The notes under the pieces are model-generated. The model was given only the letters and a program-made list of their open reading frames with translations. It made no database searches and was not told the origin of the DNA. Positions 190-30,649 of a DNA stretch of 35,117 nt are shown here, in pieces; the stretch's first letter is position 1, and every line of letters begins with the position of its first letter. The stretch comes from Candidatus Shapirobacteria bacterium (GTDB lineage Bacteria; Patescibacteriota; Microgenomatia; UBA12405): NCBI GenBank assembly GCA_026395315.1, contig JAPLYY010000024.1:1-35117 (forward strand), given 5' to 3'. The position numbers and the translations under genes were made by a program.

Positions 190-326
190 AAAAATCGCGC
201 GCGCAAAAAATAAAAAATATTAGCGAGGCCGAAGGCCGAGCGAAGATGGCGCGGCGAGTGGCCGGCCGCACTCGCCGCGCCTACCTTTGTTTGAAATCAG
301 TTCGAATTTTTTCGAAAACACTCACC
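190..326. repeat. GC-rich recombinase-associated repeat element, copy A
   Basis: It starts with AAAAATCGCGCGCGCAAAAAATAA (190-213), the same motif as at 30521-30545 and in reverse at 26484-26508. It contains a 13-bp-stem GC hairpin (248-260/269-281). It ends with TTGAAATCAGTTCGAATTTTTTCGAAAAC (291-319), near-identical to 30616-30644. The stop codon of recombinase 297-1994 lies inside it. Confidence 0.75.
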
Positions 327-1994
327 AACTGGTACTGAAGCAGTACCAAAGTGGTGTTTTAGTCCTAAATACGGGGCTAATCTGGGGGTTCCAGAAGTTA
401 AATCTGAGTAGGTTGGCATACCATCAAAAATGAGTCCGAAAAAGGCTGCTCGTTTGAGTGGATTAGCCGTATCTATCAACAATTCTTCGAGGTGTTCCAG
501 AAAGTATCCAATGCGCTCCATGACGTTCTCCATATTAATGGTATAGATTTCCTTGGTTTTTTCTTTCTTCTCATGCTCCAGTTGTTCTATATCCGCCTCG
601 GCTTTTAATAGATCTGCCTCCATATATTTAATAGCAACCTCTGATGATAAAAACTTTATTTTATCGGCAGATGCCTGGGCTGATGCTTTTAGCTCCATAA
701 TTTTTTTATCAATTATCGATCCGTCCTGTATTTTGCTACCCACTCGTTCGTTCCATTTTGCTACAACATATTTTTTCAGATTGTCGATATATTCCTGATC
801 AAACTTTAAGTTTCTAACGAAATCTTCGACCGTCTGCTCTAGCTCTTTAGAAGAGACTCGGAAATAGTGTCCGCGCTTGTTGCAATGATAGGCTGGGTAA
901 TATGTTCCTAAATGACCTCGCGAGGCACTACCAAATAAGGGTTTATGACATTCGGGACACATAATGACGCGCTTGTATGGAAATTTTGGATTGTTAATAA
1001 GTTTCTTGGTCATCCAATCCGGCAATTTTTTCTTCCAGAGTTTTACATCGTCACCAGTTTGAGATAACACCAGTTTACCCTTATTGGCTTTATTAAAAGT
1101 ATCAATAGATATTAATCCTTCGAATTTGCCTTTGACGACTTGGCCCTCTGTCCATTTTTCATTATTTATACCGGCAAATATGGGATTTTGGATATAGCGC
1201 CAAAATTGTTTAATTCTTAGAGGTTTACTGCCTCGTTGTCCGATTACTTTTGTCCGATCGTTCGGGTCACGGACAAATTGTTTTCTCGATTTATAACCCA
1301 TCCGGTTAATCTCATCGACTATTTCCTGGTCAGACATAGTGCCCTGGCAACGTAGATCAAACATTTTTATAATCCATTGAGACTCTTCCGGATTGGGTTT
1401 AAGAATAACTCGTTTGCCATGGGGCGTCTCTATTTTCTCATTCACATATCCAAATGGCGGTTGTCTGACCCGATATCCCATACGGACATATCTGATTTCT
1501 GCTCCGATCATACGGGTCATGATATCCCGCATTTCATCTTTAGCTCGTTCTGCCTCAAGAATCTCTGACTTTTTCGTCGGACTATAAACACTCCATTTAT
1601 ACGAAATATTAAGATGTTCGAGAGTATTTACATCTTTGCTCCCAATAATGCCATAAATATCAACTAACTGAACCTTATGGTTTTCCAGCTGCATTTTAAG
1701 ATGGTCGTATAAGTAAGAGCCACCACGGGTAAAACGATCGATGGATTTAATAATAAATAGCTGAATGTTATTCTTCGGATTTTTACAGTAATCGATTGCC
1801 TCCTGAACCGGCTGTTCTTCTTTGGAGGCAGACTCCATGAAGATAAAGAACTTCTTAACTTTGATATTACGTGCCAAAGCAAACCGTTCTATCTGTTCCT
1901 TTTGGGCTTCCGGAGAATCACCTTCTAATCCTTGTTTAAGGGATGAAATACGTATTGCCGCGACTGCATTTTCTTGAACAGATGTTGGGTTCAT
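297..1994 (-). CDS. large serine recombinase (resolvase N-domain + recombinase domain + zinc ribbon)
   Basis: 565-aa ORF. The N-terminus AAIRISSLKQ carries the catalytic-Ser context, followed by SIDRFTRG. A central FGY-type recombinase domain is present, with a Cys pair CPECHKP...YHCN and a C-terminal coiled-coil. Confidence 0.9.
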   Translation of the reverse strand: MNPTSVQENAVAAIRISSLKQGLEGDSPEAQKEQIERFALARNIKVKKFFIFMESASKEEQPVQEAIDYCKNPKNNIQLFIIKSIDRFTRGGSYLYDHLKMQLENHKVQLVDIYGIIGSKDVNTLEHLNISYKWSVYSPTKKSEILEAERAKDEMRDIMTRMIGAEIRYVRMGYRVRQPPFGYVNEKIETPHGKRVILKPNPEESQWIIKMFDLRCQGTMSDQEIVDEINRMGYKSRKQFVRDPNDRTKVIGQRGSKPLRIKQFWRYIQNPIFAGINNEKWTEGQVVKGKFEGLISIDTFNKANKGKLVLSQTGDDVKLWKKKLPDWMTKKLINNPKFPYKRVIMCPECHKPLFGSASRGHLGTYYPAYHCNKRGHYFRVSSKELEQTVEDFVRNLKFDQEYIDNLKKYVVAKWNERVGSKIQDGSIIDKKIMELKASAQASADKIKFLSSEVAIKYMEADLLKAEADIEQLEHEKKEKTKEIYTINMENVMERIGYFLEHLEELLIDTANPLKRAAFFGLIFDGMPTYSDLTSGTPRLAPYLGLKHHFGTASVPVGECFRKNSN

Positions 1995-2143
1995 AGGTTG
2001 TTAGTTGTTTTAATATTCTCTTTTTCGATAATTCGATCGACGATGAGGTTGGCGATTATTTTTAGTCTCTCTTCTACGGATAATTGAGGACCATTTTGAG
2101 GTAAATTCTTCGATTCTTTTGCTTCTACTCTTATTCGTTTCAT
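1991..2143 (-). CDS. small hypothetical protein (50 aa) translationally coupled to the serine recombinase
   Basis: This ORF is not in the supplied track because it is under 60 aa. It translates as ATG...MKRIRVEAKESKNLPQNGPQLSVEERLKIIANLIVDRIIEKENIKTTNNL. Its TGA overlaps the recombinase ATG (ATGA overlap at 1991-1994). Confidence 0.4.
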   Translation of the reverse strand: MKRIRVEAKESKNLPQNGPQLSVEERLKIIANLIVDRIIEKENIKTTNNL

Positions 2144-2162
2144 AGCAGGTATTTATTACAAA

Positions 2163-2180
2163 CTATCACTATAGTGATAG
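2163..2180. promoter_or_regulatory. perfect 18-bp palindrome, candidate operator in a divergent intergenic region
   Basis: CTATCACTATAGTGATAG is its own reverse complement. It lies between the minus-strand small ORF/recombinase operon and the plus-strand coupling-ATPase gene. Confidence 0.5.
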
Positions 2181-2286
2181 TATAGCAAATACAATGCCGG
2201 TGTCAAGCTCTTTTCCTCAACTAAAACCCTTTGCGAAAACCTTGCCTCTGGAGTATCATTCGAGCAACATCGAATATGGTTACTAG

Positions 2287-4929
2287 ATGATGTTAGCTGC
2301 CCAAACACGGACAGCTATGTGGAAAAATAATATTGTTCTCAAAATCTTCCAGAAAGAATTTGTTTCTTACAGTCATTCTTTAAGTCCGTATTTTCTGTCT
2401 TTTTCTCATTTCATTGTTGTCTATCTGCCTTTTCTTATTTGGCTTGTTGTTGCGCTAACTATTTTCTGGATTTGTTACATCTCAGTTAGACTCTACCTGT
2501 TTTGGAAAGAATCAAACAAACCGGTCACGATATTTGAAGTAGTTCCTCCCACATTAACCGAACAGAGTTCGTTCACGACAACTCAACTGTTTACTTCTGT
2601 TCATGGGTTACTACGCCAGCGATCTTGGATACTCCGTTTATTCGATGTCACAAAGTCGTATGCTTTTGAAATTGTTTCAACAAAAGAAAAAGGTATTTGT
2701 TATATCCTGCGGGTTTCTGCTGATGATGCTCAAATCATCAAGAAAAATTTATTAGCATATTTACCTGGTATTCAGATCAAAGAAACGAATGACTATTTTA
2801 AAGACAATTGTGATCAAGGCCATGTCATTGATATCCATTTAACCAGACATTTCGCTTTCCCACTTAAAAAACAAGACAACCTTGAAGAATACGATCCGAT
2901 TGCCTATATCACCGGATCAATGACTAAACTGGTTGATGATGAAATGGTAGCTGTACAAACGATTGTATCGCCTATAAATAGGTCAACGGCGCACGTTATT
3001 GGACGGCTTCGGTCGCTTTTCCTCGGGGACAAAGATGTTCTTTCTGAATTACAAACGACTAATCCGTTAGGCTCTTTTTTGGTACCGATTATCCATTTGC
3101 TTCTGCAAATCTTATTATTTCCATTGGGCTTATTAATCTGGATAGTTACAGTTGGTCGGGAAGGGCCAATCCTGCCAATTATGTCCTTAAAAGGTCAATT
3201 ACCGGATAGCACTTACAGGGATATTGTTGAAACTCAAATCAAGCAAAAGATAGATCAACAATTGTTTACCGTTTCTTTACGGTTACTCACGGTTTCTAGT
3301 TCTTACTCAAACAAATCAAAAATTGAAAAAGGTTTTATTGCCGCGTTGTCTCCATTTACTAATGCAGGGTATCAATCACTTAGACCCAAAAGATATATCA
3401 AAATCAAAGCAGTAAACAAGATACTGCTTTGGCTCTATCAACATAGATTATTGGGTCTCAGTGGCAATTTGACGCTCTCTATGTCTGAGTTATCCGATCT
3501 CTATCATTTCCCCTATACCAGTACCACTAAAACCGAGAATCTTTCAAAATTACACAGCAAAGAATTACCAGCACCGTTATCCCTGAAACAAAAAACTGAG
3601 TGTGATCTGTATTTTGCCAAAAATACGTATGGAGGAACGGAAACGAAAATTGGATTAACGGTTGATGAACGCCGCCGCCATGTCTATATCTTGGGTGCTA
3701 CCGGTACAGGAAAATCCACAATGCTTCTGTCTATGATCCAGCAGGACATCGAGCACAATAAAGGGTTATGTGTGATCGATCCGCACGGAGATTTAATCGA
3801 ACAGGTCTTATCGGTTATTCCTAAATCGCACATTCCTGATGTGGTCTACTTTAACCCTGATGATATAAGTTTCCCGATGGGAATTAATTTATTAGAGTTA
3901 ACCCCAGGCTTGAATCCTGAAAACGCGGTCAGAGAACAGGAGTTTATTGCTGAAAGCATTATTTCAATTTTTCAAAAAATCTACACCGATAAATACTCAG
4001 GCCCGAGAATGGAATATATTTTGAGAAACACAATACATACTGCTTTTACTATTCCGGACGCAACACTCTTTACCATTTACAAACTTCTCATTAATACAGG
4101 CTTTAGAAAATCAGTGGTACGAAACTTAACCGACGAAAATCTTAAGGACTTTTGGAAGTATGAGTTTGCTAAAGCCGGAGATTATCAAAAAGTTAAAATG
4201 ATTTCGCCGATTACCAACAAGATTGGTCGTTTCCTATTTTCTCCAACTGCCAAACGGATTCTCGAACAGGGAAAATCCACCATTAATTTCGACACTATTC
4301 TTAATGACGGGAAAATACTTCTTTGCAATCTTTCGAAGGGCAAGATCGGAGAGGATAATTCCAGTGTCTTTGGAGTCCTCATTATGGCCAAGGTTCAGTT
4401 GGCTTCCTTAAAACGTGCCAGGATGAAGCAAGAAGAACGCAGGGATTTCTATTTATATGTTGACGAGTTCCAAAACTTTGCCACTCCGGCATTTGCTCAA
4501 ATTCTGTCCGAGGCCCGTAAGTATCGACTTGATGCCATATTAGCTCACCAAACAACTTCACAAATTGAAGACAACTCACTGGTAAATGTAACTCTGGCTA
4601 ATACGGGTACAGTAATCTGTTTCCGAACGGCTAATCCTGAAGATGAGCGGATGATATTGCCGCAATTTAGGCCATATATTGAACAGGGAGAAATTGCCAG
4701 CTTGCCCTCGTATCGTTTCTATATACGGCTTGGAGCTATGAATCCGGAAGAGCCGTTCTCAGGCATTACCGTTCCTGTTCATATCGAATACAGTCAAAAA
4801 CGGATAGATGAAGTCATTGAGTCTTCGCGCCATTTATATGCCAGGGAATGGAAAGAGGAATCTCCTAATACACCACCAATTAAAAGTGAGAAAAAAACAG
4901 CTTCACATTCAACAAGCCTCTTACCTTAG
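2287..4929 (+). CDS. type IV secretion coupling protein-like ATPase (VirD4/TraG/TraD family) with N-terminal membrane domain
   Basis: 880-aa ORF. Hydrophobic N-terminal segments are present. Walker A is GATGTGKST, followed by VIDPHGDL. Walker B is LYVDEFQNFAT, followed by ARKYRLDAILAHQTTSQ. Confidence 0.8.
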   Translation: MMLAAQTRTAMWKNNIVLKIFQKEFVSYSHSLSPYFLSFSHFIVVYLPFLIWLVVALTIFWICYISVRLYLFWKESNKPVTIFEVVPPTLTEQSSFTTTQLFTSVHGLLRQRSWILRLFDVTKSYAFEIVSTKEKGICYILRVSADDAQIIKKNLLAYLPGIQIKETNDYFKDNCDQGHVIDIHLTRHFAFPLKKQDNLEEYDPIAYITGSMTKLVDDEMVAVQTIVSPINRSTAHVIGRLRSLFLGDKDVLSELQTTNPLGSFLVPIIHLLLQILLFPLGLLIWIVTVGREGPILPIMSLKGQLPDSTYRDIVETQIKQKIDQQLFTVSLRLLTVSSSYSNKSKIEKGFIAALSPFTNAGYQSLRPKRYIKIKAVNKILLWLYQHRLLGLSGNLTLSMSELSDLYHFPYTSTTKTENLSKLHSKELPAPLSLKQKTECDLYFAKNTYGGTETKIGLTVDERRRHVYILGATGTGKSTMLLSMIQQDIEHNKGLCVIDPHGDLIEQVLSVIPKSHIPDVVYFNPDDISFPMGINLLELTPGLNPENAVREQEFIAESIISIFQKIYTDKYSGPRMEYILRNTIHTAFTIPDATLFTIYKLLINTGFRKSVVRNLTDENLKDFWKYEFAKAGDYQKVKMISPITNKIGRFLFSPTAKRILEQGKSTINFDTILNDGKILLCNLSKGKIGEDNSSVFGVLIMAKVQLASLKRARMKQEERRDFYLYVDEFQNFATPAFAQILSEARKYRLDAILAHQTTSQIEDNSLVNVTLANTGTVICFRTANPEDERMILPQFRPYIEQGEIASLPSYRFYIRLGAMNPEEPFSGITVPVHIEYSQKRIDEVIESSRHLYAREWKEESPNTPPIKSEKKTASHSTSLLP

Positions 4930-4966
4930 TAATGAAATATAAGACAGTTTATACTACAATCGATTT

Positions 4967-7078
4967 ATGTCAGAAGTAGATTCCCCAATAAAGTTAGAAC
5001 CTGTCTTTTTTGGTAAGGGAGAAGCGGCTTCTCATCTACATCTTTCAAATACACAACGGGAAGCGGTCAAGGCTATTACCCTGGGTATTACTGAAGTAGA
5101 TGAAGCGGTGAGAGCCCAAGCAGTTCCTGATATCATTAATACTCTTGAAAATGGTCATCCACTCAACCGCTTAATTACAGACCCTGAAGGTAAAACGATT
5201 GGCTATATTGCCTGCGAAGATTTTGTTCCTCAAGAAGCATATATAAAATACCTCGGAACAACAAGGAATTCAGGTCGAAGTCTACTTGAGGAAATACCTG
5301 CTTTCTTAAATTTTGCAAAAGATCATGGATACAAGAAACTTAATTTTCATGGTTGGAATGACCGATTAAATCATGTAATGGAACACTACGGTTTTAAAAA
5401 TACTCGGACTGATGCAATGGGAGGACATAATATAAATTATTATGAACGGTCACTACTTTCCCATAAAGGGAAACCGCTAGATGAGGGGCAATTTGAAAAA
5501 GAATACCAAAAGGTCATGAATATGGTTGAACCTGAGGAACGAAGTAAAAAGGAACGGGAAATTACTCGTGTGTTTCAGGAAGTAAGCGGCAGGCTTACAA
5601 GTTATGAAAAAACATTACCGAGAGAGAAACAAAGATTTGAATTTGGTCAGCGTCAGCAGGATATTTTAAAACTGAAACTCGCGCGCCATTTTCAAAACAG
5701 CGAAACCATTGACGCAAACACCCTCTATGACGCCATCATTGAAAGTCCAAAATTTATTGATAATGACAAAGGTTCCCTGAAGCACTTATTTGAAGTTCAT
5801 GAAGTGAAGACGTTACAAAAACTTGCCGAAGCACGCAAAAAATTGGCTGAAAGATCGGGAGATCAAAGTTTTAACCCGTATGAAAATTTATTTACCACCA
5901 CATCCGGCAAGTATTATATGGCAAGGCTTTTAAATATGCCCCATTTAGAGCAAGAGTCCGCATATCTGAAACACTGTGTAGGGACAAGTGATTCCTATAT
6001 TAATCAAATGAAACGGGGAGAAATTGAAATACTTTCTTTTAGAAATGTACCCAAATTTAATCCACTCACCCAGGAGCTTGAAGGTGATACCCCCATTTTT
6101 ACCATTGAGTATAATCTGAAAACAAATATAATTGAGCAAATTAAAGGCAGAAAAATGAGTGATCGTACAGAGCTGCTTATTTCTCCGAATGATGCTTACT
6201 TTAACGATATAATTGATGCATTAAAAACACTGCGGTCAACCAGAACAGATAACGGCAAGTTAAGAAATTTCACCGAGATTTCCCCAAGTGAATTACAAAA
6301 TATTCATGTTGATGTATATCAGGTCTTTACTGAAAATGGACCTGTTTCCTTTAGAGATTTCGACCCAGATTCTGGAGTGTTTGCCTTAAAGATGGGTAAG
6401 ATGTCGATTGACGCAACTATGTCTCATGAAGATGTTGCTAAAATTGTCAGACTGACAAAAGGAGTTAGGTGTTTACCAGAAGAAATTGCTCTGGCTCAAG
6501 AAGAAGTGTCTGCTCAAACCAAAGTGCTGTATGTCGATAAACTTTCTTCAAGGTTTTTTCAGTGGCTACCTGAAAATGTTGAACATGTCTACGACTCTTT
6601 TTCAGAAGGTAAAATTAGTAGAGAGAGTATAGTGGCTGGAGGTATAAGTGCGAAGGTACTGGTAACTGATATGAAACAAAAGGGAATGGAACCAAGCGAT
6701 TATGCCAAATCAATGATGGAAAATTCGGATTTTGTTACATTAAAGCAATCGGAAAAAATAGACTTAATTCATCTAACGGTTGGTGACATGGGTTTTACTG
6801 ATATACCAACGACCGATGAACTTTATCAGAGAGCTTTGGAGTTAGGTCTAGAACTTTGCCCACCAGAAGTTGGTCCAGCACTTCGTTTGAAAGATGAAAA
6901 TCAAGCAATGTGGAGTAGCTATTATATTGGAATGAAGCAAATTTCTGGCTCTGACGGCGGTCCGGACGTGTTCGAGGTCGGACGCGGTGGCGATACCCCG
7001 TGGTTGCGTAGCGTTTGGGCCTATCCGGGCTATCACTGGGCTCTCGACCGTGAGTTTGTCTTCCGTCTTCGCAAGTAA
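4967..7078 (+). CDS. DGR1 target protein, multidomain, with C-terminal variable region
   Basis: 703-aa ORF lying 37 nt downstream of the coupling ATPase. The last ~47 codons are the VR matching TR1. I saw no N-terminal signal peptide or TM segment. The N-terminal region is GNAT-like by eye. The central YLKHCVGTSDSY...GEIEILSFR is reminiscent of PcfJ-like proteins, but both domain calls are tentative. Confidence 0.85.
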   Translation: MSEVDSPIKLEPVFFGKGEAASHLHLSNTQREAVKAITLGITEVDEAVRAQAVPDIINTLENGHPLNRLITDPEGKTIGYIACEDFVPQEAYIKYLGTTRNSGRSLLEEIPAFLNFAKDHGYKKLNFHGWNDRLNHVMEHYGFKNTRTDAMGGHNINYYERSLLSHKGKPLDEGQFEKEYQKVMNMVEPEERSKKEREITRVFQEVSGRLTSYEKTLPREKQRFEFGQRQQDILKLKLARHFQNSETIDANTLYDAIIESPKFIDNDKGSLKHLFEVHEVKTLQKLAEARKKLAERSGDQSFNPYENLFTTTSGKYYMARLLNMPHLEQESAYLKHCVGTSDSYINQMKRGEIEILSFRNVPKFNPLTQELEGDTPIFTIEYNLKTNIIEQIKGRKMSDRTELLISPNDAYFNDIIDALKTLRSTRTDNGKLRNFTEISPSELQNIHVDVYQVFTENGPVSFRDFDPDSGVFALKMGKMSIDATMSHEDVAKIVRLTKGVRCLPEEIALAQEEVSAQTKVLYVDKLSSRFFQWLPENVEHVYDSFSEGKISRESIVAGGISAKVLVTDMKQKGMEPSDYAKSMMENSDFVTLKQSEKIDLIHLTVGDMGFTDIPTTDELYQRALELGLELCPPEVGPALRLKDENQAMWSSYYIGMKQISGSDGGPDVFEVGRGGDTPWLRSVWAYPGYHWALDREFVFRLRK

Positions 7079-7082
7079 CTTT
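6937..7082 (+). repeat. DGR1 variable repeat (VR1)
   Basis: It gives a 146-nt ungapped alignment to the reverse complement of 8521-8666. There are 27 differences, and 25 of them fall at positions that are A in the TR. The segment TGAGTTTGTCTTCCGTCTTCG near the 3' end is identical in both copies. Confidence 0.92.
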
Positions 7083-7114
7083 GACCCTTTGTTCCTTAGT
7101 TCCTCCTTTACTAC

Positions 7115-8212
7115 TTAGGGATTTTGATTCTTTGACTCTTTGTTCTCCTTGTCGCGAAGCGACTCAGTCATAATTTTTTGTGAGAGCTTGTATGTGTTCC
7201 CATGACGCAATAAACCCAAATATGAATTTAATGTTTCCAATGAGTTGTTTTGTCGCAGTCTTTTCAACATGTGGTGTTTGGTGGCCGTACGGAGAATTCG
7301 ATGATGACCAAAATGTACCCAACCTAAAAAATCAATTCCTGAGGCAAGCGTTTTGATAAAGACTTTTTTAGGATGAAGGGAAAGTTTTAAATTTGTTTCT
7401 AAATATTCGGAAAGTTTTGGAATAAGTTCTTCTAAGTATATTTTACTTTGACTAAAGATGAGAAAGTCGTCAGCATAGCGCAAATAATATTTCACTTTCA
7501 ATTTTCTTTTCACAAATTGATCGAATTGATTCATATAAATATTAACGAGAAGCTGACTGGTTAAATTGCCAAGAGGAAGCCCAACACTAAGTTTTCCAAC
7601 AGTTTCAAAACTATCAATGACTTGTTCCAGAAGCCACATGATATCAGGATCTTTAATGGATTCTTTTAAGATATTTTTGAGAACAGCGTGGTCAACACTG
7701 GCAAAAAATTTTCTAATATCACCCTTTAAAATCCAAGTGGTTTTCGTGTTATTTTGAGATGCCTTTCGTCCAAAACTTCTGGCTCTATCCATGGCCTTAT
7801 ATGTGCCCTTACCCATTCTGCAAGAATAGGAATCAAAGATAAATTGACGATCAAAATAAGGATAGAGACTACGGTGAAGAGCATGATGAACGATTCTATC
7901 GCGGAGACTTGCCTTGTGAATATCTCTTGGTTTGGGATCGCTTATTTTAAAAGCAAAATAGCCACCATGTCGATATGTTTTGGTAATCAAGTCTTCATAA
8001 AGAGAAATCAAATTATCGGAAAAATGTAAGATAAATGTAGCAACATCTTTTCTGTTCTTTTTTCCTCGTAAGAATTCCTGCCATGAGGTTAGTAAATTTT
8101 CAAAAGAAACGATATCATTATACCTATGGTTAAAACGCTTTCTTTTAGCAGCGCTTCGATTTTGATTAAAATCAAAGATGGATATTTGCTCTGGACGAGT
8201 ATTGTTTCTCAT
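7115..8212 (-). CDS. DGR1 reverse transcriptase
   Basis: 365-aa ORF. It carries LPLGNLTSQLLVNIYMNQFD (the DGR-type IGxxxSQ motif), the YADD box (LRYADDFLIF), LSLHPKK and GIDFLGW. It is adjacent to Avd and TR1. Confidence 0.9.
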   Translation of the reverse strand: MRNNTRPEQISIFDFNQNRSAAKRKRFNHRYNDIVSFENLLTSWQEFLRGKKNRKDVATFILHFSDNLISLYEDLITKTYRHGGYFAFKISDPKPRDIHKASLRDRIVHHALHRSLYPYFDRQFIFDSYSCRMGKGTYKAMDRARSFGRKASQNNTKTTWILKGDIRKFFASVDHAVLKNILKESIKDPDIMWLLEQVIDSFETVGKLSVGLPLGNLTSQLLVNIYMNQFDQFVKRKLKVKYYLRYADDFLIFSQSKIYLEELIPKLSEYLETNLKLSLHPKKVFIKTLASGIDFLGWVHFGHHRILRTATKHHMLKRLRQNNSLETLNSYLGLLRHGNTYKLSQKIMTESLRDKENKESKNQNP

Positions 8213-8509: not shown

Positions 8510-8520
8510 GCGTACAAAAG

Positions 8521-8666
8521 AAAGATACTTTCGAAGACGGAAGACAAACTCATTGTCGAGATTCCAGTGATTGTCCGGATTGGCCCAATTGCTATTCAAC
8601 CACGGGGTGTCGTCATTGCGTTCGACCTTGAACACGTTCGGATTGCCGTCAGAGTCAGTTTTTTGT
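8521..8666 (-). repeat. DGR1 template repeat (TR1)
   Basis: Read on the minus strand it has nine AAY codons, and every one of them differs in VR1 (VR1 has G,D,G,R,V,Y,Y,A,R). It is on the same strand as RT1. Confidence 0.92.
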
Positions 8667-12040: not shown

Positions 12041-12042
12041 GT

Positions 12043-22560: not shown

Positions 22561-22562
22561 CT

Positions 22563-23324
22563 ATGATGGAAACAACTAAAACCACGATCATCGAAGTAAA
22601 AAACCTTAATAAAACCTTTGAGGTTAAGTCAACACAAATACCGGTGTTGAAAGATATTAACGTGGAGATTAAAAAGGGCGAGTTTATCATTATTACCGGC
22701 CCGTCCGGCTGTGGCAAATCCACCCTCTTACATATCCTGTTGGGACTTGAACCGCCAAGTTCGGGCTCTGTTGTCTTTTTGGGTAATAATCTTTACGGTG
22801 GCATGACCGAGGATGAACGCACAGAAGTGCGAAAAACCGAAGTCGGCATGGTGTATCAACAACCCAACTGGATTAAGGCTTTAACCGTTTTGGAAAACGT
22901 GATGTTTGCCCTCCGGATTAACGGAGAAACGGATGAAGATGCCCGCAAAAAAGCGATTGAGGTTCTGACTATGGTGGGTATGGATAAATGGCAAGATTAC
23001 ATTCCAACCGAGCTATCAAGCGGGCAACAGCAGAAAGTGGCTTTAGGACGGGCTGTTGTCACCAACCCCCAGATTATTATTGCCGATGAACCGACGGGGA
23101 ACCTCGACTTTAAATCCGGTCAGGAACTGATGGAACTTTTAAAAAAACTGAATAATGAAAACCGAACGATTATCATGGTGACACACGACCTGGAATATCT
23201 GACCTTTGCCACCCGGTCGTTTATTATGTTTGACGGCAAAATTGTCGGATCGGCACATGAGCATGAACTGGCGGGAAAGTTGGGCGGTTTCAAAAAATTA
23301 ATGGCTTCAGTCACCAAACAATGA
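22563..23324 (+). CDS. ABC transporter ATP-binding protein (MacB/LolD/FtsE-like)
   Basis: Walker A is GPSGCGKST, the signature is LSSGQQQKVALGRA, and Walker B is IIIADEPTGNLD. Confidence 0.9.
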   Translation: MMETTKTTIIEVKNLNKTFEVKSTQIPVLKDINVEIKKGEFIIITGPSGCGKSTLLHILLGLEPPSSGSVVFLGNNLYGGMTEDERTEVRKTEVGMVYQQPNWIKALTVLENVMFALRINGETDEDARKKAIEVLTMVGMDKWQDYIPTELSSGQQQKVALGRAVVTNPQIIIADEPTGNLDFKSGQELMELLKKLNNENRTIIMVTHDLEYLTFATRSFIMFDGKIVGSAHEHELAGKLGGFKKLMASVTKQ

Positions 23325-23325
23325 T

Positions 23326-25299
23326 ATGAAAATACTAGTGGTACCAAAAATTAAACAAACATTCAAACAGTCTCTCCGTTCCATTGGCGAGATTGCAAGC
23401 TTCTTGATTCTGGTAGTTCTCTATTCATTTTCCTTATTTGTTATAAAAATAAGTCAGAAATGGAAAAAATTGGGTACGGTGACAACACGGTTTGACCGCT
23501 GGGTTAAAGGACTGGACAAAAAAGACCAGAGCGGCGTCAGCCGTTTGTATCTTATTGAAATTGCCTTCAAAAACATGGCTGCTAAAAAGACCCGAACGAT
23601 TATTACGATCGGCGGCATGGCCATCGGCATTTCCTTTATTGTATTTCTGGTCTCTGTGGGCTACGGCTTACAGCAATTGGTCGTTTCCCGGGTGGCGCGT
23701 TTGGACGAGTTGAAACAAGCAGAGGTTGTCCCGGGACTCTCCAAAGATTTGAGCCTAACCGACGCTACAATCGCAAAATTTAAAGAGATAAATAATGTCA
23801 CTAATGTTTTGCCCCTTATAGCCGTGGTCGGACGCATCTCCTATCAAAACTCGGTGTCGGATTTAGCTGTTTACGGAGCTACCTCCGATTACCTGAAATT
23901 CTCCGCCCTACAACCAGTAAAAGGAACGTTGTTTGAGAGTAACACCATTAGTTTTGACACTTCATCTCTTGGGGCGGTAGCAGGGGCAGAGACGCGTGTC
24001 GGAGAAAAGGGTGAGGAAATCGGCGCTATCTCCTACGCCATAGATACTGATACTTGGCTTAAAGTCCGTGAAGGGCCAAGTACCACAGCCAAAATTATTG
24101 GCTACACCAAACGCACCGAAGGCCACACAAACGGCACGGAAGTTTGGGGCGATACTTATATCACCGATACCAATGCCGGGAAATCCGGAACGAACGGAAA
24201 AGGAGATCCAATGGGCAAGTGGGTAAAAGCAACTTATTTACTTTGGGAAAAGAAGACGTGCACAACAGAAGGAAGCGGCGACTGCGAAAACGGATCGTAT
24301 ATGGTTTTACGGGATAAAGACAATCTTCAATTGCAGCAGGAAGGCTATATGGCAGAAATTTCAATGACTACTACACTTCAGGACCAGGTTACCCAGGTTT
24401 TAGGGGTAACAACAGCAAACACCTCGGGTTCCTTGCCGGTTGTGGAGGTGGCTAGTGAGTCTGCGTCGGCGCAAAATCAGGCAATACAAAAAGTGGAAGT
24501 TAAAAGTACGGAAAAGAAACAAATTGTGGTTAACCGTTCCGTCCTGCAACTTTTAAATATTCCCGAATCAGAGGCGGTCGGGAAAGAACTGAATCTTTCC
24601 ATGGTAGTAGTAGGGGAACTTCTGGATGATTCAAACATGCGTATTGAATCGACACCTTTGGCATATTCCATTGTCGGCGTAATCCCCGATGAAGGCACGC
24701 CGGTTGTCTATGTGCCATTTATTGATGTCCGGTCTTTGGGGGTTAATAAATTTTCTCAGGCCAAAGTTATTGTCAAAGATAAACAGGATTTGGCCAGCGC
24801 TCGCGCCTCAATTGAATCGGCAGGATATGGCACAGTATCGGTTGCCGATACCGTTGCTCAGATTGATACACTATTTGCCAATTTCCGTTTGATTTTATCA
24901 ATTCTCGGGATGGTGGCGTTATCGGTTGCGGCTTTGGGTATGTTTAACACACTTACGGTGTCACTTCTTGAACGTACACGGGAAGTAGGGCTGATGAAAG
25001 CCATGGGTATGAAATCGGATGAAGTTAAATCTCTGTTTTTGACTGAATCAATGATAATGGGACTTTATGGCGGAATTTTAGGACTTATTTTGGGAGTTAT
25101 TGTTGGGAAAATATTAAGTATTGTTTTGTCCGCTCTCTCTTTGATAAAAGGTGTGGGATTTGTTGATATTTCCTACGTGCCACCTGTCTTTGTTCTGGTG
25201 GTTCTTGCGCTTTCCGTACTGGTCGGAATTGCCACCGGCTACTTCCCAGCCAAGCGGGCAACCAGAATTTCCGCCCTCAATGCATTGCGCTACGAATAG
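23326..25299 (+). CDS. ABC transporter permease, FtsX/MacB-like, with a large extracytoplasmic insert
   Basis: It starts 1 nt after the ATPase stop. The C-terminal FtsX-type region carries LLERTREVGLMKAMGMKSDEV plus TM helices. The insert contains an SH3b-like stretch, WLKVREGPSTTAKIIGY. Confidence 0.85.
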   Translation: MKILVVPKIKQTFKQSLRSIGEIASFLILVVLYSFSLFVIKISQKWKKLGTVTTRFDRWVKGLDKKDQSGVSRLYLIEIAFKNMAAKKTRTIITIGGMAIGISFIVFLVSVGYGLQQLVVSRVARLDELKQAEVVPGLSKDLSLTDATIAKFKEINNVTNVLPLIAVVGRISYQNSVSDLAVYGATSDYLKFSALQPVKGTLFESNTISFDTSSLGAVAGAETRVGEKGEEIGAISYAIDTDTWLKVREGPSTTAKIIGYTKRTEGHTNGTEVWGDTYITDTNAGKSGTNGKGDPMGKWVKATYLLWEKKTCTTEGSGDCENGSYMVLRDKDNLQLQQEGYMAEISMTTTLQDQVTQVLGVTTANTSGSLPVVEVASESASAQNQAIQKVEVKSTEKKQIVVNRSVLQLLNIPESEAVGKELNLSMVVVGELLDDSNMRIESTPLAYSIVGVIPDEGTPVVYVPFIDVRSLGVNKFSQAKVIVKDKQDLASARASIESAGYGTVSVADTVAQIDTLFANFRLILSILGMVALSVAALGMFNTLTVSLLERTREVGLMKAMGMKSDEVKSLFLTESMIMGLYGGILGLILGVIVGKILSIVLSALSLIKGVGFVDISYVPPVFVLVVLALSVLVGIATGYFPAKRATRISALNALRYE

Positions 25300-26197: not shown

Positions 26198-26306
26198 GGT
26201 TTACCTCCATATTATCAATAAATACGATTTTTCCGTCTACCTCTGTGATTCCTAATTCCCCGAGCTTATAATATGTCTTGATTACACTCTCGAAAAGAGG
26301 TTCCAC
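26190..26306 (-). CDS. small conserved ORF (38 aa, GTG start) upstream of the HKD nuclease; paralogue at 31015-31191
   Basis: MEPLFESVIKTYYKLGELGITEVDGKIVFIDNMEVNHE is ~53% identical over 38 aa to the translation of 31015-31191, and many of the nucleotide differences are synonymous-type. There is no obvious RBS, and the frame is open upstream into the repeat. Confidence 0.3.
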   Translation of the reverse strand: MEPLFESVIKTYYKLGELGITEVDGKIVFIDNMEVNHE

Positions 26307-27820
26307 CGGTGGTACAATTGGCTCACCAAAAGGGAAATCGAGTCGGAAGTGGGGGCAGCGCTGGCTGCGCCCCCCTTCGCAGACAGCGCTGCAAAGGCAT
26401 AATTCAAATCCGCCGAGAGCCGCCGATTCATTAAAAAGAAGTTCGAGCCGACTTTTTTTACCATGATTGACAAATCATGGCAATTATTTTTTGCGCGCGC
26501 GATTTTTTGCGCCTGTAAGGCGCAATTTACGAATTCTCTCATAGGTTCGAGCCAAACAGTTCCGTTTTTCTTAATTTGGGATTTTCTTTCCTCTAACTTT
26601 AGTTTTTCGTCAAACAATTCATTCTTCTTCTGTTTGTAAATTCCCGGTTCGATAACCTGATCGAGATAACCGTCAAGAAGCCTATTTAGTTTTACTTCGG
26701 ATTCTTGGATTTGTCCGTCAAGCTGTTTTTCTTCTACTTCGGCAACTAATTTATCTTTTTCTTCGGCTTGGGTGATCCACTTATCAAAATACGGTTCCCA
26801 GCCTTCGTGCAAGCCGCAATCATGAACAATTTTTCTTACTTGTTCTTCTGTATCAGATTCAGAAATATATTTTTGATTACATGGTTTTAGTTTTTTAGTG
26901 CAACGATAGTAAATAAAAGTTTGTCCAGTTCCATTTTTATATTTCTTGACGTGTTGTTCTGCGGTGATTGCGGCGCCGCATTCGCCGCAGGTCGCCAGAC
27001 CTGCAAAGGCGAAATTGTGGCCTTTTTGTCTTGGTCTTTCGATTCTCTCAACTTGTTTTTGGACTTCGTCAAACAGCTTTTTGCTGATAAAAGTTTTGTG
27101 AGAACCTTGATAATATTCGTCAGCATATTTGAGAATGCCTAAGTAGAATTTATTTGAAAGCATATTTTTTACTTGGCCAACTTTTACGAGTTTTTCTCCC
27201 TCCCGCTTAATTCCAAACTTAAACATAAATTGAGAAATGGCCGTAAATGAAGAATTGCCTTCAGCAAAAAGCTGAAATGATTTTTTGACGATTCGTGATT
27301 TTTCTTCGTCAACATCTATTCCCCTCGTTTTGGGATTATTGGAATATCCGTAAGGTGCTTTACTTGGCCAAACTCCGTTACGGAGTTTTTGCCTATTACC
27401 TCGTTTGACATTTTCGCTTAGATTATCAACATAATACTTGCTTTGGCCAAAGGCGATTGAAAGCATAAATTTGCCTTGCGGGGTGCTTTCAAACCAAAAT
27501 GAGGGGAATTTTAAATCAAGGAGTTTGCCGGTATCCAAAAGATAAATTATTTTTCCTCCGTCAATACTGTTTCTAGCCAAACGATCGGGATGCCATGAAA
27601 GAATGGCGTTAGCCATTCCTTTCTCGATTTTCCTTAAGACTTCCGCAAATTGCTCTCGCCCAGGAACCTTAGCGGTTTTCGCTTCGGTGATAAATTCGGT
27701 GATAGTTAGATTTTCTCGTTTGGCAAACTCCTTGAGTTCGGCAATTTGGGCTTCAATAGACAAAACTTGTTTATCCTTTTCATCTGTGGATTTTCGACAA
27801 TAGGCAATATATTTGATCAT
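26282..27820 (-). CDS. large serine recombinase
   Basis: 512 aa. Motifs are AYCRKSTDEKDKQVLSIEAQ, HPDRLARN, APYGY and the zinc ribbon CGECGAAI...YYRCTK. The last ~45 codons run through the 103-bp repeat and beyond, so the natural C-terminus is uncertain. Confidence 0.9.
   Translation of the reverse strand: MIKYIAYCRKSTDEKDKQVLSIEAQIAELKEFAKRENLTITEFITEAKTAKVPGREQFAEVLRKIEKGMANAILSWHPDRLARNSIDGGKIIYLLDTGKLLDLKFPSFWFESTPQGKFMLSIAFGQSKYYVDNLSENVKRGNRQKLRNGVWPSKAPYGYSNNPKTRGIDVDEEKSRIVKKSFQLFAEGNSSFTAISQFMFKFGIKREGEKLVKVGQVKNMLSNKFYLGILKYADEYYQGSHKTFISKKLFDEVQKQVERIERPRQKGHNFAFAGLATCGECGAAITAEQHVKKYKNGTGQTFIYYRCTKKLKPCNQKYISESDTEEQVRKIVHDCGLHEGWEPYFDKWITQAEEKDKLVAEVEEKQLDGQIQESEVKLNRLLDGYLDQVIEPGIYKQKKNELFDEKLKLEERKSQIKKNGTVWLEPMREFVNCALQAQKIARAKNNCHDLSIMVKKVGSNFFLMNRRLSADLNYAFAALSAKGGAASAAPTSDSISLLVSQLYHRWNLFSRV
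26323..26425. repeat. inverted repeat IR1, left copy (103 bp)
   Basis: It is the exact reverse complement of 27868-27970, checked base by base. It is GC-rich with an internal hairpin (GAAGTGGGGGCAGC..GCTGCGCCCCCCTTC). Confidence 0.9.
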
Positions 27821-27867
27821 AGTTTTGTTTCTCTTAAAATTTTTTCGTTTTTCTTCATTCTTTTTTA

Positions 27868-27970
27868 CGGCGGCTCTCGGCGGATTTGAATTATGCCTTT
27901 GCAGCGCTGTCTGCGAAGGGGGGCGCAGCCAGCGCTGCCCCCACTTCCGACTCGATTTCCCTTTTGGTGA
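27868..27970. repeat. inverted repeat IR1, right copy (103 bp)
   Basis: It is the exact reverse complement of 26323-26425. It lies 47 nt upstream of the recombinase start codon. Confidence 0.9.
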
Positions 27971-28070
27971 ACGTTTTTGAAAAAATTCGAACTCATTTCA
28001 AGTCAAACTGTTAGCTTGCCGCTTTGCGGCTCGCTACTCCAGCGCGGCGCCCCCACCCGCCGCGCTTCCG
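27967..28070. repeat. inverted repeat IR2, left copy (104 bp)
   Basis: Its reverse complement matches 30546-30649 at 103/104 positions. It overlaps the IR1 right copy by 4 nt (GTGA). It contains a 9-bp-stem GC hairpin, AGCGCGGCG..CGCCGCGCT. Confidence 0.9.
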
Positions 28071-28157
28071 AAAAAGTCGGCTCGAACAGGACAAAATCAG
28101 ATATGATTTTGTCCAAAGAAAAACGCAAAAATTTTAAAGAACTTTTATATAACTCAA

Positions 28158-28245
28158 ATGGCGCAACCGGTGGTCTCAACAAGAAATTGCTTTCTGTTGT
28201 CCGATTGCGCCATTAAAAAAAGCAATTTCTTGAATTGTTGAGACC
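28158..28245. other. compound inverted repeats capable of two mutually exclusive hairpins
   Basis: ATGGCGCAA (28158-28166) pairs with TTGCGCCAT (28205-28213). GGTCTCAACAAGAAATTGC (28172-28190) pairs with GCAATTTCTTGAATTGTTGAGACC (28222-28245, with a 3-nt bulge). The left arm of the second pair lies inside the loop of the first. Confidence 0.5.
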
Positions 28246-28286
28246 AATAACAATATACCAAAAACTACAAGTGGAAAACAAGAGGG

Positions 28287-30008
28287 TTAAATATAGTTCA
28301 ATTGTCTAAGTTTTGTTGCTGCTCGCGCAGAAATAGCTTGCATTGCTTCAGGAGTGAGAGAATCATATTGGCCTGAAAGTTCACCACAAGACTCAGCAAT
28401 TGTTTTAGTTATTCTACTGGTGTAACTTTCACCCTTTTTCCCTGATTCATCTCTTGTATCTTCAACAAAAGAAACACCTTCCGCTATTTGATTTGTAAAG
28501 AAAGACGATCGGGGTCTTAATGCGTCTTGAGGCAATCTTCCCATTCCGTCTTTTACCACACCAAGCCACTGATCTGAATTTGCCTTTTGCTCAGGAGTTG
28601 TTGCTTCAGGCATATATAAATATGCTACACAAGTATCTGTTCTTGTGTATTCTTCAAAATCTTTTCGGAATTTGAATTGCAAACGCATTCCATATTGATC
28701 CAGCTGATCAGATATCCTTGCTAGCTTTTCGGCCACTGTTGAACTACCTTCAGGACTTGCGTTAATGTAAAATCTTACCTCTCTAGCATTTGGAGGTCTG
28801 GGGGCATTACCCTTGAACCAAACAAAACCAGCTGCTTGATCAGGCTGGCCCCCATCAATCAATTCTTGCTCTGTAATCTGTCTAACTTTAGACGTACTTG
28901 CGACACGGTCTCTTAATCTTTGAGGGTTTTCAGAGTCAAATGTTTGGATATACTCATCAACATTAGGGGCATGAAGAGAATCTATTAGCGCTTCTCTCGG
29001 CATTCCTGATTTATGAATAACCTCATACATTGATTGAGCCATTTTTGCCAGAATTTGCATATCTGTTTCTGTAGTTTTTGTTTTTTCTCTGTAAACCTGC
29101 AATGTCCTTTGTAATGTCGGATCACTAGAAACAACTCTTAAAAAGGACTCAATTTGTTGCTGAAATGCCTGAGTTTTTTCATCAGCTTCTGTGGTTTCCG
29201 GTTTTGTTTTTTCTTGTACGGTCTGTTCTGATGCTTTTGGAGTAGATTGCTGATCTTTACCTTCTTGAGCAGGAACGATATTCACGCCTTGTGCTTCCAA
29301 GGCGGATTTAATTCTATCAACCGAAACTCCAGCAGCTTTTGCTTCATTAATTACAGTTTGTAACTGAGATTGAGTTAAACTACCCTCTTTTACTTTAGGA
29401 ATTTGGAGAGAAATTTCAGATAAATATGCCTTTATTCTATCTTCGCCTAAAATATTTTTGCCTGATTCCGGCGCAGTTGTTCCTGTTGCCGATTGAGTAG
29501 CTACTTGTTCGCGAGAGACAGCAGTTATCCCAAGTGATTTTAAGTGTTCGCTTATTTTTTCTCTTGGTACTCCCGCAGCTATTGCAGCATCAACTATTTT
29601 TTGAACATTTTTCTGTCTGTCCGCAATCGGAACCTCTTGTTTTCCACTAGCACTTGTAATTGCTGACGACAAACCTCTTTCTTGAGCCGGTTGAGGTGAG
29701 GTTTCTCCCACTTTTATTGCTGTTGGAGAGATAATTTCGCCACCTACTATGGATGTTTTATCTCTCGCAGCTTCATCATTTAAAAATTGTTCAAAGGGAG
29801 TTTTCCCTGTCTCACTTTGAGGTGACTGCTCTCCAGCAATATCTCGTAAAACTTGATCAGGATTGCCATCTTCAACTATTCTCTCGATAATTTTTTGTTC
29901 ACCTTGGCCAATAGGCTTTTCAGGCGCTTTTGCCTCGGGCGGTTTTAGAGCCGCTGGTTTTTCTGGTTGTTTTATCGTTGGTAATTCTGTAACTGGTCCA
30001 TCGGCCAT
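28287..30008 (-). CDS. hypothetical 573-aa protein, cargo of the IR2-bracketed segment
   Basis: The N-terminus is Pro/Lys/Glu/Gln-rich and looks disordered. Two ~33-aa internal repeats occur (..AAGVPREKISEHLKSLGI.. and ..AAGVSVDRIKSALEAQGV..). The C-terminal ~200 aa (VRFYINASPEG...LQFKFRKD...YTRTDTCVAYLY) is reminiscent of HopA1-family proteins, but that is recollection only and unverified. Confidence 0.6.
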   Translation of the reverse strand: MADGPVTELPTIKQPEKPAALKPPEAKAPEKPIGQGEQKIIERIVEDGNPDQVLRDIAGEQSPQSETGKTPFEQFLNDEAARDKTSIVGGEIISPTAIKVGETSPQPAQERGLSSAITSASGKQEVPIADRQKNVQKIVDAAIAAGVPREKISEHLKSLGITAVSREQVATQSATGTTAPESGKNILGEDRIKAYLSEISLQIPKVKEGSLTQSQLQTVINEAKAAGVSVDRIKSALEAQGVNIVPAQEGKDQQSTPKASEQTVQEKTKPETTEADEKTQAFQQQIESFLRVVSSDPTLQRTLQVYREKTKTTETDMQILAKMAQSMYEVIHKSGMPREALIDSLHAPNVDEYIQTFDSENPQRLRDRVASTSKVRQITEQELIDGGQPDQAAGFVWFKGNAPRPPNAREVRFYINASPEGSSTVAEKLARISDQLDQYGMRLQFKFRKDFEEYTRTDTCVAYLYMPEATTPEQKANSDQWLGVVKDGMGRLPQDALRPRSSFFTNQIAEGVSFVEDTRDESGKKGESYTSRITKTIAESCGELSGQYDSLTPEAMQAISARAATKLRQLNYI

Positions 30009-30009
30009 A

Positions 30010-30363
30010 TTATTCCTTTAATTTAACTTCTTTATTAGCAGCTTTCTTTAATAAAACATTTGCTTCTTCAATTTTTCCTTGTTTCAAAAGGATTCCTACA
30101 TGATTAACGACAGCGTTTTTTACTTTTTCATCATAATCTCTGGAAACTTCTAAAACTACTGGTACTAATTCTGAAAAATGGTCATCGAAGTTTTGAACCA
30201 CATCATGAATTTGATTTAATGTCATGTGGGGATGGAGGGAACTTAATATATACCTTGCTAGTTCCCTCGCTCGGTTGGCATCCATTTGATGAGCCTTTAG
30301 ACCATCTTCAATAATTTGCAATATTTCAAGCTCTATTTTTTTGCGATATTCCTCATTGTCCAT
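30010..30363 (-). CDS. hypothetical 117-aa helical protein, co-operonic with the 573-aa protein
   Basis: Its stop is 1 nt from the downstream ATG. There is no SD, and a TATACT box lies 6 nt upstream of the ATG, so the transcript may be leaderless. Confidence 0.55.
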   Translation of the reverse strand: MDNEEYRKKIELEILQIIEDGLKAHQMDANRARELARYILSSLHPHMTLNQIHDVVQNFDDHFSELVPVVLEVSRDYDEKVKNAVVNHVGILLKQGKIEEANVLLKKAANKEVKLKE

Positions 30364-30545
30364 ATTTACAGTATATCAAAATTGGGGTTTATTTTTTATG
30401 GCCAAAATAGTGGAAATTGGCCAATGGTTTTTGGTATCATATAGGGAGTTTCCGTGTCCACGCACGGGCGGGTGGGGCAAGGACACTATAAATTCCTTCC
30501 TTGCTCGAACGAAGTGAGAGAAAAAATCGCGCGCGCAAAAAATAA

Positions 30546-30649
30546 CGGAAGCGCGGTGGGTGGGGGCGCCGCGCTGGAGTAGCGAGCCGCAAAGCGGCAA
30601 GCTAACAGTTTGACTTGAAATGAGTTCGAATTTTTTCAAAAACGTTCAC
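30546..30649. repeat. inverted repeat IR2, right copy (104 bp), preceded by the CGCGCGCG end motif
   Basis: It is the reverse complement of 27967-28070 with one mismatch (30557). AAAAAATCGCGCGCGCAAAAAATAA lies at 30521-30545. Confidence 0.9.

Follow-up and report, generated by a model that had tools for sequence, protein, structure and literature searches.

The DNA considered here (hereafter the window) is a stretch of 35,117 nt from a Candidatus Shapirobacteria bacterium (assembly GCA_026395315.1, contig JAPLYY010000024.1, positions 1–35,117 of the forward strand). Two serine recombinase genes lie on its minus strand, at 297..1994 (recombinase 1, 565 aa) and 26282..27820 (recombinase 2, a 512-aa open reading frame, ORF), and both adjoin short repeated modules. 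Recombinase 1 has the Pfam domains PF00239 (Resolvase) and PF07508 (Recombinase); recombinase 2 has PF00239 (5e-21), PF07508 (2e-11) and PF13408 (Zn_ribbon_recom, 8e-10). BLASTP detects no similarity between the two proteins. The closest solved structure to recombinase 2 is that of the SPbeta integrase, with an alignment that covers residues 4–416 only, and identity to annotated phage and plasmid enzymes does not exceed 28%. Neither recombinase family is described in the literature searched, which also held nothing specific on elements of this kind. We propose that the repeats are the attachment-site half-sites and flanks of integrative elements, and that the two enzymes very probably represent unrelated families of large serine recombinases (LSRs) targeting tRNA 3′ ends in bacteria of the candidate phyla radiation (CPR, Patescibacteria). 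Judged from sequence, both would be active in recombination.

Repeats Around the Recombinase Genes

An initial annotation of the window had reported three recurring modules separated by GC-rich hairpins with stems of 9–13 bp. Folding confirms the hairpins, and the modules are present in numbers far above those expected from shuffled sequence. Module M1 (AAAAATCGCGCGCGCAAAAAATAA) is found at 190–213(+), 26484–26507(−) and 30522–30545(+) (three matches, 0.00 expected), the TTCGAA-centred end (GTTCGAATTTTTTCRAAAACRYTCAC; hereafter the T module) at 300–325(+), 27967–27992(−) and 30624–30649(+) (three matches, 0.00 expected), and M3 (AAAAAGTCGGCTCGAAC) at 26441–26457(−) and 28071–28087(+) (two matches, 0.14 expected). 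All copies are situated at five junctions, each marked by the pentamer (G/T)GTGA (326–322, 26327–26323, 27966–27970, 30650–30646 and 31212–31208), which had also been noted and proves to be the reverse complement of the crossover core described below. The reported tie between repeats and recombinases holds as well: both genes adjoin such junctions and both ORFs terminate within repeats, that of recombinase 1 in the T module and that of recombinase 2 after running through M1, M3 and the next repeat.

The initial annotation treated these modules as one GC-rich repeat family, which they are not. M1 was correctly seen to be coding within recombinase 2, and both M1 and M3 are parts of this gene (KIARAKNN and KVGSN, respectively) with additional, non-coding copies beside the cargo, while the GC-rich hairpins are variable filler within attachment-site arms. 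Absent from that annotation were the tRNA target, the tandem island and two pairs of long inverted repeats. Pair A (26323–26425 and 27868–27970; 103 nt, 100% complementary) encloses recombinase 2, and pair B (27964–28070 and 30546–30652; 107 nt, 98% complementary) encloses 2.5 kb of cargo. The two pairs meet at TTGGTGA.

Elements of the Recombinase 2 Family Mostly End at tRNA Genes

A scan of one genome per species returned at least 216 relatives of recombinase 2, from which 80 loci were kept. These are mostly metagenome-assembled genomes of CPR/Patescibacteria, chiefly Microgenomates lineages, and many record titles name other taxa. CPR-type elements occur together with CPR housekeeping genes in records titled Gammaproteobacteria, Pseudomonadales, Methanoperedens and others (L002, L019, L020, L035, L208 and many more), and the taxonomic titles of such records look unreliable. 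Close relatives share one arrangement. Read with the recombinase gene on the plus strand, it begins with T (reversed), a variable segment, M1 (reversed), cargo, a further module M4 (reversed), a hairpin, M3 (reversed), a variable segment and T (forward). Beyond the internal junction follow segment Ao (forward), a variable segment, segment Ai and M4 (both forward), the recombinase gene ending in M1 (forward), a hairpin, M3 (forward), Ai (reversed), a variable segment and Ao (reversed). Self-comparison detected the recombinase-flanking repeat (~100 nt, gap ~1.4–1.5 kb) in about 50 loci and the cargo-flanking repeat (75–160 nt, gap 0.6–5.7 kb) in about 36, and across the family the two pairs adjoin with an overlap of 3–10 nt.

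What lies at the ends of these elements? Adjacency to tRNA genes was scored with ARAGORN in 62 loci, and in 52 of them a tRNA gene opposite to the recombinase strand overlaps, with its 3′ end, the outer end of the arm on the 3′ side of the recombinase gene. Ten specificities are represented (Lys, Glu, Val, Leu, Gln, Arg, Ile, Tyr, Trp and Ser), and recombinases that are 92–95% identical are located at different tRNAs, which fits recognition of generic tRNA features. Attachment-site triplets from 28 elements have a common logic: attL consists of the tRNA, a core and Ao; the internal junction of T, the core and Ao; and attR of T, the core and the flank. Apart from a short core, no sequence is common to all three. 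This core could be resolved automatically in 19 of the 28 elements; it is 2–7 nt long and nearly always CAC-based (TCAC, GCAC or CCAC), and it corresponds to tRNA positions 71–74, made up of the final bases of the acceptor stem together with the discriminator A and C74. The triplets thereby support the earlier suggestion that half-sites had been swapped by repeated site-specific recombination at a short common core.

The spacing of a second motif bears on the type of each half-site. GTTCGA lies 22 nt from the core in the T arm and 18 nt from it in the tRNAs, a constant shift of 4 that is exact in 16 of the 19 triplets scored; the other three are mis-hits of the motif finder and show a shift of 4 by eye. 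Serine integrases have the same outer motif, read by the zinc-ribbon domain, at a distance from the centre that is 5 bp shorter in attB than in attP (PMC3783163). By this rule the T arm, with its motif further out than in the tRNA, behaves as an attP-type tRNA half-site. The domain set, the half-site exchange at a short core and the attB/attP spacing are thus all those of an LSR integrative element.

These features suggest how the elements may move. An excised circle would carry attP as a P arm, NCAC and a P′ arm, and the recombinase would pair this attP with a tRNA gene, with crossover within tRNA positions 71–74 (NCAC). The universal T-loop sequence GGTTCGA is most likely read as the zinc-ribbon-domain motif, which the P arm has 4–5 nt further out. 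A newcomer could take as its target the tRNA already in use or, alternatively, the P arm of a resident element, which resembles a tRNA.

Recombinase 1 and the Tandem Island

The genome collection contains 137 relatives of recombinase 1, and among the 30 loci scored for tRNA adjacency a tRNA adjoins the 3′ end of the recombinase gene in 24 (mostly Glu, also Gln, Lys, Ser and Asn). In these homologues attL reads tRNA..GGGGTCACCA followed by ACGGGAACTAAGG...TTTTAGCCCTAAATATGGGGCTAAT, the P′ sequence succeeding the tRNA 3′ end as ..GGGGTCACCA and then ACGGGAAC... The window counterpart, CAACTGGTACTGAAGCAGTACCAAAGTGGTGTTTTAGTCCTAAATACGGGGCTAAT, comes after ..GAAAACACTCAC, which is not a tRNA but the T module at 291–325. 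A recombinase 2-type P arm therefore occupies the usual position of the tRNA at 322–325, making this a tandem junction. An earlier reading, in which the window element sat in a non-tRNA pseudo-site, was replaced once the recombinase 1 loci showed the site to be the P arm of a neighboring element.

The 26-kb block that opens with the recombinase 1 P′ arm has GGTTCCACCGGTGGTACAATTGGC followed by TCAC at its far end (26299–26326). This arm recurs at 31184–31207 and in locus L036, each time with TCAC next and then unrelated sequence; in L036 it is joined to a recombinase 2-type element with a different Ao arm, in a junction of the same type as that at 26323–26326. In this arm GGTTC is 23 nt away from the core, 5 nt more than the 18 nt of a tRNA. 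We read GGTTCCACCGGTGGTACAATTGGC as the putative P arm of recombinase 1-type elements (hereafter P1). The degenerate sequence TGTACCACNGGTGGAAC, present at 26300–26316 and 31185–31201, had been described as one of two alternative right halves of the junctions. Both halves exist; we read them as the P arms of two different recombinase families.

Repeated insertion at one site leads to a head-to-tail pile-up, here in the order E0, E1a, E2, the E1b remnant and the chromosome, and the mosaic of modules would be the series of junctions between stacked elements. Each junction of the window has the P arm of the element on its left, NCAC and the P′ arm of the element on its right, with the tRNA sense on the plus strand. 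E0 is represented by its right end (186–321, +), made up of an M1 copy (186–213), variable GC hairpins (214–290) and the P arm T (291–321); its body lies left of the window. At 94–98% identity, the unit at 186–328 matches units found in L020, L002, L016 and L015 as well as the inverted-repeat arms of the canonical locus L024. L024 also has a recombinase fragment of 174 aa with 96% identity to recombinase 2. On account of this identity, which includes canonical cargo-flanking arms, the unit is taken as the right end of another recombinase 2-type element.

Junction J1 (core TCAC, 322–325, +) separates the E0 P arm from the P′ arm of E1a (~326–380). The latter is formed by the 3′ end of recombinase 1, whose last eight codons are in the E0 T module. 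E1a, which resembles an integrative conjugative element (ICE), spans 326–26322, its bounds given by J1 and J2, and ends in its P arm, P1a (26299–26322, +); it contains no further T-type or P1-type arm. Junction J2 (core TCAC, 26323–26326, +) is the attL of E2, with the E1a P arm in the tRNA's place.

E2 (26323–30649) comprises recombinase 2, the internal inverted attP and the HopA1-like cargo. Its P′ arm is the distal arm of repeat A (26323–26425, +; Ao, variable hairpin and Ai), which encodes the end of the recombinase 2 tail on the minus strand, and the ORF reads across J2 into the E1a P arm. M3 (26441–26457), a hairpin (26461–26480) and M1 (26484–26508) follow, all on the minus strand, as coding segments of the C-terminal extension. 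The internal inverted attP region (27868–28070, +) is composed of the proximal arm of repeat A (27868–27970), the core GTGA (27967–27970) and an arm of repeat B with its T module (27964–28070). Next to it (28071–28137, +) are the non-coding M3 (28071–28087), a hairpin (28089–28114) and M4 (28116–28137), the last being an inverted copy of the recombinase 2 leader (27834–27855). The cargo (28287–30363, −) encodes a 117-aa protein without a family match (30010–30363) and a 573-aa protein that matches the HopA1 effector family of Pfam (28287–30008; E = 1.3e-9). At the right end of E2 (attR; 30518–30649, +) are a non-coding M1 (30518–30545), the other arm of repeat B with its T module (30546–30645) and the core TCAC (30646–30649).

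E1b (30650–31207) is a degraded recombinase 1-type element. Its left part would, from a weak resemblance, be the remnant of a recombinase 1-like 3′ end, and it is followed by a paralogue of the small gene of E1a (31015–31191, −) and the P arm P1b (31184–31207). After a last core TCAC (31208–31211, +), the chromosomal flank begins at 31212 with a 259-aa gene, EF-P and trigger factor. ARAGORN finds no tRNA in the window, so the tRNA of the island must lie to its left. The most degraded element, E1b, is also the most distal, which fits newcomers entering next to the tRNA, as in tycheposon islands; the order of the insertion events would follow from this.

An Internal Inverted attP

Recombinase 2-type elements contain two copies of a ~210-bp attP region, inverted to each other, and this holds across the family, with the same internal junction in canonical loci. 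The two inverted-repeat pairs arise because one copy is split into attL and attR while the other stays intact between cargo and recombinase. Median arm identity within an element is 97.7% (n = 50) and 98.5% (n = 36) for the two pairs, and between elements whose recombinases are 83–96% identical it is only 61–93%. Identity within elements thus exceeds that between them, indicating that the copies are homogenized by concerted evolution. Excision of the units one at a time, as circles with palindromic joints, was considered and rejected: each unit has its two cores in opposite orientation, and the core sequence is no palindrome.

What, then, might the intact copy do? A promoter-like pair, TTCGCA-16-CATAAT, is present in Ai of both arms, the proximal-arm copy being on the minus strand, which places the intact internal attP just upstream of a putative recombinase 2 promoter. 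Our best guess is an operator/promoter for the recombinase that survives integration. Possibly the copy is instead a splint, by which a single-stranded element folds back, juxtaposes its ends and recircularizes after uptake or conjugative transfer; it is also possible that it lets the C-terminal tail of the recombinase be switched by inversion of the recombinase unit. A combined proposal is that recombinase 2-type elements represent a novel type of serine recombinase mobile element, in which the enzyme uses the T-loop and CAC (positions 72–74), a structural constant of all tRNA genes, so that almost any tRNA gene could serve as a landing site, and in which the second ~210-bp inverted attP is functional. 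We put this forward tentatively, as a conjunction that has the odds against it.

Near-perfect inverted repeats that enclose both units also invite comparison with a DNA-inversion switch (phase variation), in which recombinase 2 would flip its own gene, the cargo or both. Flipping at the shared cores would keep the junctions and swap the recombinase tail and the orientation of the gene relative to the tRNA, and rare alternative arrangements exist in two loci (L097 and L099) and in three metagenome contigs with an adjacency of M3, arm and T. However, module order and orientation are identical in all of the ~25 close relatives in which both repeat pairs are resolved, the tRNA is on the same side of the recombinase in the 52 loci mentioned above, and the alternative contigs may have been assembled chimerically across a collapsed repeat. 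LSRs, moreover, normally do not pair attP with attL or attR (PMC3783163), and the tRNA-linked logic of attL and attR accounts for the ends without inversion. Free flip-flopping is unlikely because one arrangement dominates, and we regard the switch as improbable.

The two exceptional loci differ from each other. In L097 (5802–8750), a tRNA-Glu is found upstream of a recombinase that is cut short directly behind M1, and a second cargo cassette comes next; in L099, the recombinase unit lies between two convergent tRNA-Glu genes (5802–7588). Each is a rare rearranged version of the element or else an artefact of assembly. The three contigs came from a single metagenome scan for circle-junction or flipped adjacency, and they could be circle junctions, isomers or assembly chimeras.

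Cassettes Without a Recombinase

The initial annotation had asked whether copies elsewhere always lie beside serine recombinases. Some units lack one: short assemblies of M1, hairpin and T (110–210 nt) occur without a recombinase 2 homologue in the stretch fetched (≤8 kb) in L002, L004, L006, L015, L016, L020 and L028, and tiny derivatives in L026 and L110. Such units could be taken for a generic intergenic repeat of CPR genomes, of the repetitive extragenic palindrome (REP) or miniature inverted-repeat transposable element (MITE) kind, that is near recombinases incidentally. Those examined nevertheless sit at tRNAs or junctions. The units in L004, L023 and L026 each closely follow a tRNA gene and share its orientation, and L010 holds an array with the same junction structure. 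They share their P′ and P ends with the autonomous elements, and their arms are 94–98% identical to those of the latter. Instead of the randomly placed, recombinase-unlinked copies that a generic repeat predicts, the family has its copies at tRNA 3′ ends beside these recombinases, so that a REP/MITE origin is largely refuted and very improbable. For the recombinase-less units, among them those with the same ends at tRNAs in L004 and L023 and in the L010 array, the best interpretation is that they are non-autonomous cassettes belonging to this LSR system.

A Coding Tail Within the Attachment Site

Because the 3′ end of the recombinase gene contains the P′ arm, each recombinase ORF runs across attL. 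In recombinase 2 the result is a C-terminal extension of ~70 aa encoded across the P′ arm. Its segments are, in order, M1 (KIARAKNN), a hairpin (CHDLSIMAKK), M3 (KVGSNFFL), Ai (NRRLSxNLNFPFAAL), a variable GC hairpin (Ala/Gly-rich) and Ao (SISLLV). After Ao the tail crosses attL into the tRNA in antisense, where GFEP is the antisense of the T-arm. Among 51 homologues there is no indel over residues 426–500 and the motifs are conserved at the amino-acid level, with GSN[FY][FS]L..[RK].L....[GP]F..L retained in homologues of 55% identity. Relaxation at third-codon positions is seen in Ai and in the main part of the gene. It is absent from M1 and M3, which points to an additional constraint at the DNA level on both modules. 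On the plus strand, antisense to recombinase 2, the hairpin at 26461–26480 and the T-run of M1 resemble a terminator. Such a terminator, which would keep transcription of the tRNA from running on, is a candidate for the constraint. No coding role falls to the M1, M3 and M4 copies next to the cargo.

Could structure in RNA, or transcription signals such as terminators and processing stems duplicated around genes, explain the modules altogether? The terminator-like hairpin, the promoter-like hexamers in Ai and the constraint on M1 and M3 at all codon positions are in keeping with this, and local hairpins of several units fold better than shuffles (z-scores −3 to −4.7). The structured RNA raised by the initial annotation did not materialize, since nothing in the window matches Rfam at the gathering threshold and mismatches between the long arms show no G:T bias (19 vs 25 and 11 vs 19), about half being of other, non-wobble types. 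This spectrum argues against selection for an RNA stem and was taken to rule out that account of the long repeats. The GC hairpins lack T-runs, and none was flagged as a classical terminator. RNA signals can coexist with attachment sites, yet they cannot explain the tRNA linkage or the relations among attL, attP and attR, and as a full account they have very little probability.

Empty Sites and Remaining Difficulties

Shapirobacteria relatives that lack the island, found through EF-P, have a tRNA-Leu(tag) or tRNA-Lys(ctt) ending ..GGCAC followed by TTTTTTTGCTACACTATTTTATG. In the window, the flank TTTTTTTTGTTAAACTAATTTATGTTCCTGC, which succeeds P1b and TCAC at 31212, is homologous to the post-tRNA flank of these relatives (TTTTTTTGCTACACTATTTTATGTTCTTGC) and lies at the predicted distance from EF-P. 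No relatives of the 259-aa flank protein were found; EF-P served as the anchor. Exact-protein look-ups of recombinase 1, an 880-aa protein and a 77-aa ORF returned no record.

Several points weigh against integration by LSRs at tRNA genes as the explanation. Recombination itself was not observed, and for E2 neither an unambiguous circle junction nor an empty site turned up. Logan contigs of the same population, recognized by their HopA1-like, PLD-like and 259-aa proteins, are short, come from one study and end within the repeats, and in every one the site is occupied. Both the tRNA and the left limit of E0 fall outside the window. The assignment of 26299–26322 as a P arm rests on position, recurrence and motif spacing, with one complete recombinase 1 element examined. 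The downstream (B′) half of the target has no conservation, which is unusual for an LSR attB. In E2, at 4.3 kb, no directionality factor and no conserved second gene were found. In a few members of the family the recombinase-flanking repeat is missing or has decayed to ~80%.

Two further observations concern the tRNA genes near EF-P. In L205–L232 (at ~4600–6300 in each), a cluster of tRNA-Leu(tag), Arg(tct), Arg(tcg) and Lys(ctt) beside EF-P is found in either orientation and with its genes in several different orders, which suggests that inversions between tRNA genes have taken place repeatedly. Recombination between an element-borne attP and a second tRNA would have this outcome. In L214 (5650–5835), ~70 nt separate a tRNA-Leu from a duplicated 3′ fragment of a tRNA (GGGGTTCGAGTCCTCTCAGCGGCAC), behind which the conserved flank begins; the duplicated fragment may be the scar of a lost element.

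Relationship to Known Systems

Targeting of tRNA genes is a textbook habit of tyrosine integrases. Among small elements moved by LSRs, Tn4451 (TnpX) and Tn5397 (TndX) have no known directionality factor, a circular form and an overlap on the scale of a dinucleotide; unlike the elements here, they are not known to target tRNA genes or to carry a long inverted copy of the joint internally. In Tn3/gamma-delta, a serine recombinase site just upstream of the recombinase gene can act as an operator. The analogy with the res site of Tn3 is limited to the internal site, a candidate operator, which here, by contrast, is a full attP copy with ~100-nt arms. The accretion of Streptococcus ICESt1/ICESt3 and cis-mobilizable elements (CIMEs) yields head-to-tail integrative elements that share attachment sites, non-autonomous cassettes included, by means of tyrosine integrases and long identical attachment-site repeats. 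Here, in contrast, two unrelated LSR families share only a 4-nt core. Integrons, defined by a tyrosine integrase (IntI), an attI site and cassettes that each end in a folded attC, differ from the present system, in which the recombinase is a serine enzyme, the cassette ends are P′ and P half-sites at tRNA genes and the junctions of the L010 array are attP-type.

The LSR systems of phiC31, Bxb1, A118/LI and SPbeta have the same domain set, short sites with a tiny common core and the motif shift (4–5 nt here, 5 bp there; PMC3783163). In those systems the target is one protein-coding gene, whereas many tRNA 3′ ends are used here, and the unconserved downstream half of attB, the ~70-aa extension of recombinase 2, the second inverted attP and the lack of a detected directionality factor also set the present elements apart. 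Tycheposons of Prochlorococcus use tyrosine recombinases in 910 of 937 elements, with each integrase clade tied to one tRNA (bioRxiv 10.1101/2020.12.28.424599). They resemble the present elements in being small, cargo-bearing and located at tRNA genes, in forming islands with degraded older copies distal to the tRNA and in the diversity of their niche cargo. The differences are the use of LSRs, the spread of one family across tRNAs, the host phylum and the lack of a replication module in E2. As enzyme class differs and tRNA specificity is absent, the resemblance to tycheposons is functional only.

An integrative element at a tRNA gene is therefore of a known kind; new are the class of enzyme for this target, the T-loop look-alike with attP-type spacing, the promiscuity among tRNAs and the internal inverted attP. 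Two unrelated serine recombinase families target tRNA genes in the CPR with a 4-nt overlap and a T-loop look-alike at the predicted spacing. The system puts the model of half-site spacing in serine integrases to the test in nature and may supply enzymes with a compact, near-universal landing site. It also represents a route of accessory-gene gain in tiny episymbiont genomes, with interchangeable cargo cassettes and an ICE stacked behind one tRNA. The conserved, homogenized internal inverted attP goes beyond what current knowledge of serine integrases explains.

Gene Content of the Elements

The cargo differs in each element related to E2 and, across the family, includes methyltransferases, transporters, kinases, a DNA methylase, proteases and nucleases. 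E1a encodes a VirD4/TraG-like protein (2287–4929), a relaxase-like Replic_Relax protein (9105–9914), an IS3-type transposase (10999–12021), a TraG/VirB4-type P-loop ATPase (12106–13218), an M23 peptidase (13221–13847) and an AbiEi/AbiEii pair (13911–15441); it also has a PLD-like gene with a small gene of 38 aa. A block of higher GC content (0.45–0.52) at 18000–25000 includes a MacB/FtsX ABC transporter. The stretch 326–26322 looks like an ICE of the Shapirobacteria genome.

Two reverse transcriptase genes are also located in E1a. Upstream of the one at 16347–17492(+) is a 117-nt repeat (16061–16177) that recurs in an 859-aa ORF (18953–19069, 74% identical). These were considered as a second diversity-generating retroelement (DGR): 8 of 30 mismatches are at adenines, and as the mismatches are not adenine-specific there is no obvious active pair of template and variable repeat. 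The other gene (7115–8212, −) belongs to a DGR at 6938–8665, with a template repeat at 8521–8665 and a variable repeat at 6938–7082. The variable repeat is at the C-terminus of a 703-aa PcfJ-like protein, and 24 of its 26 mismatches fall on template adenines.

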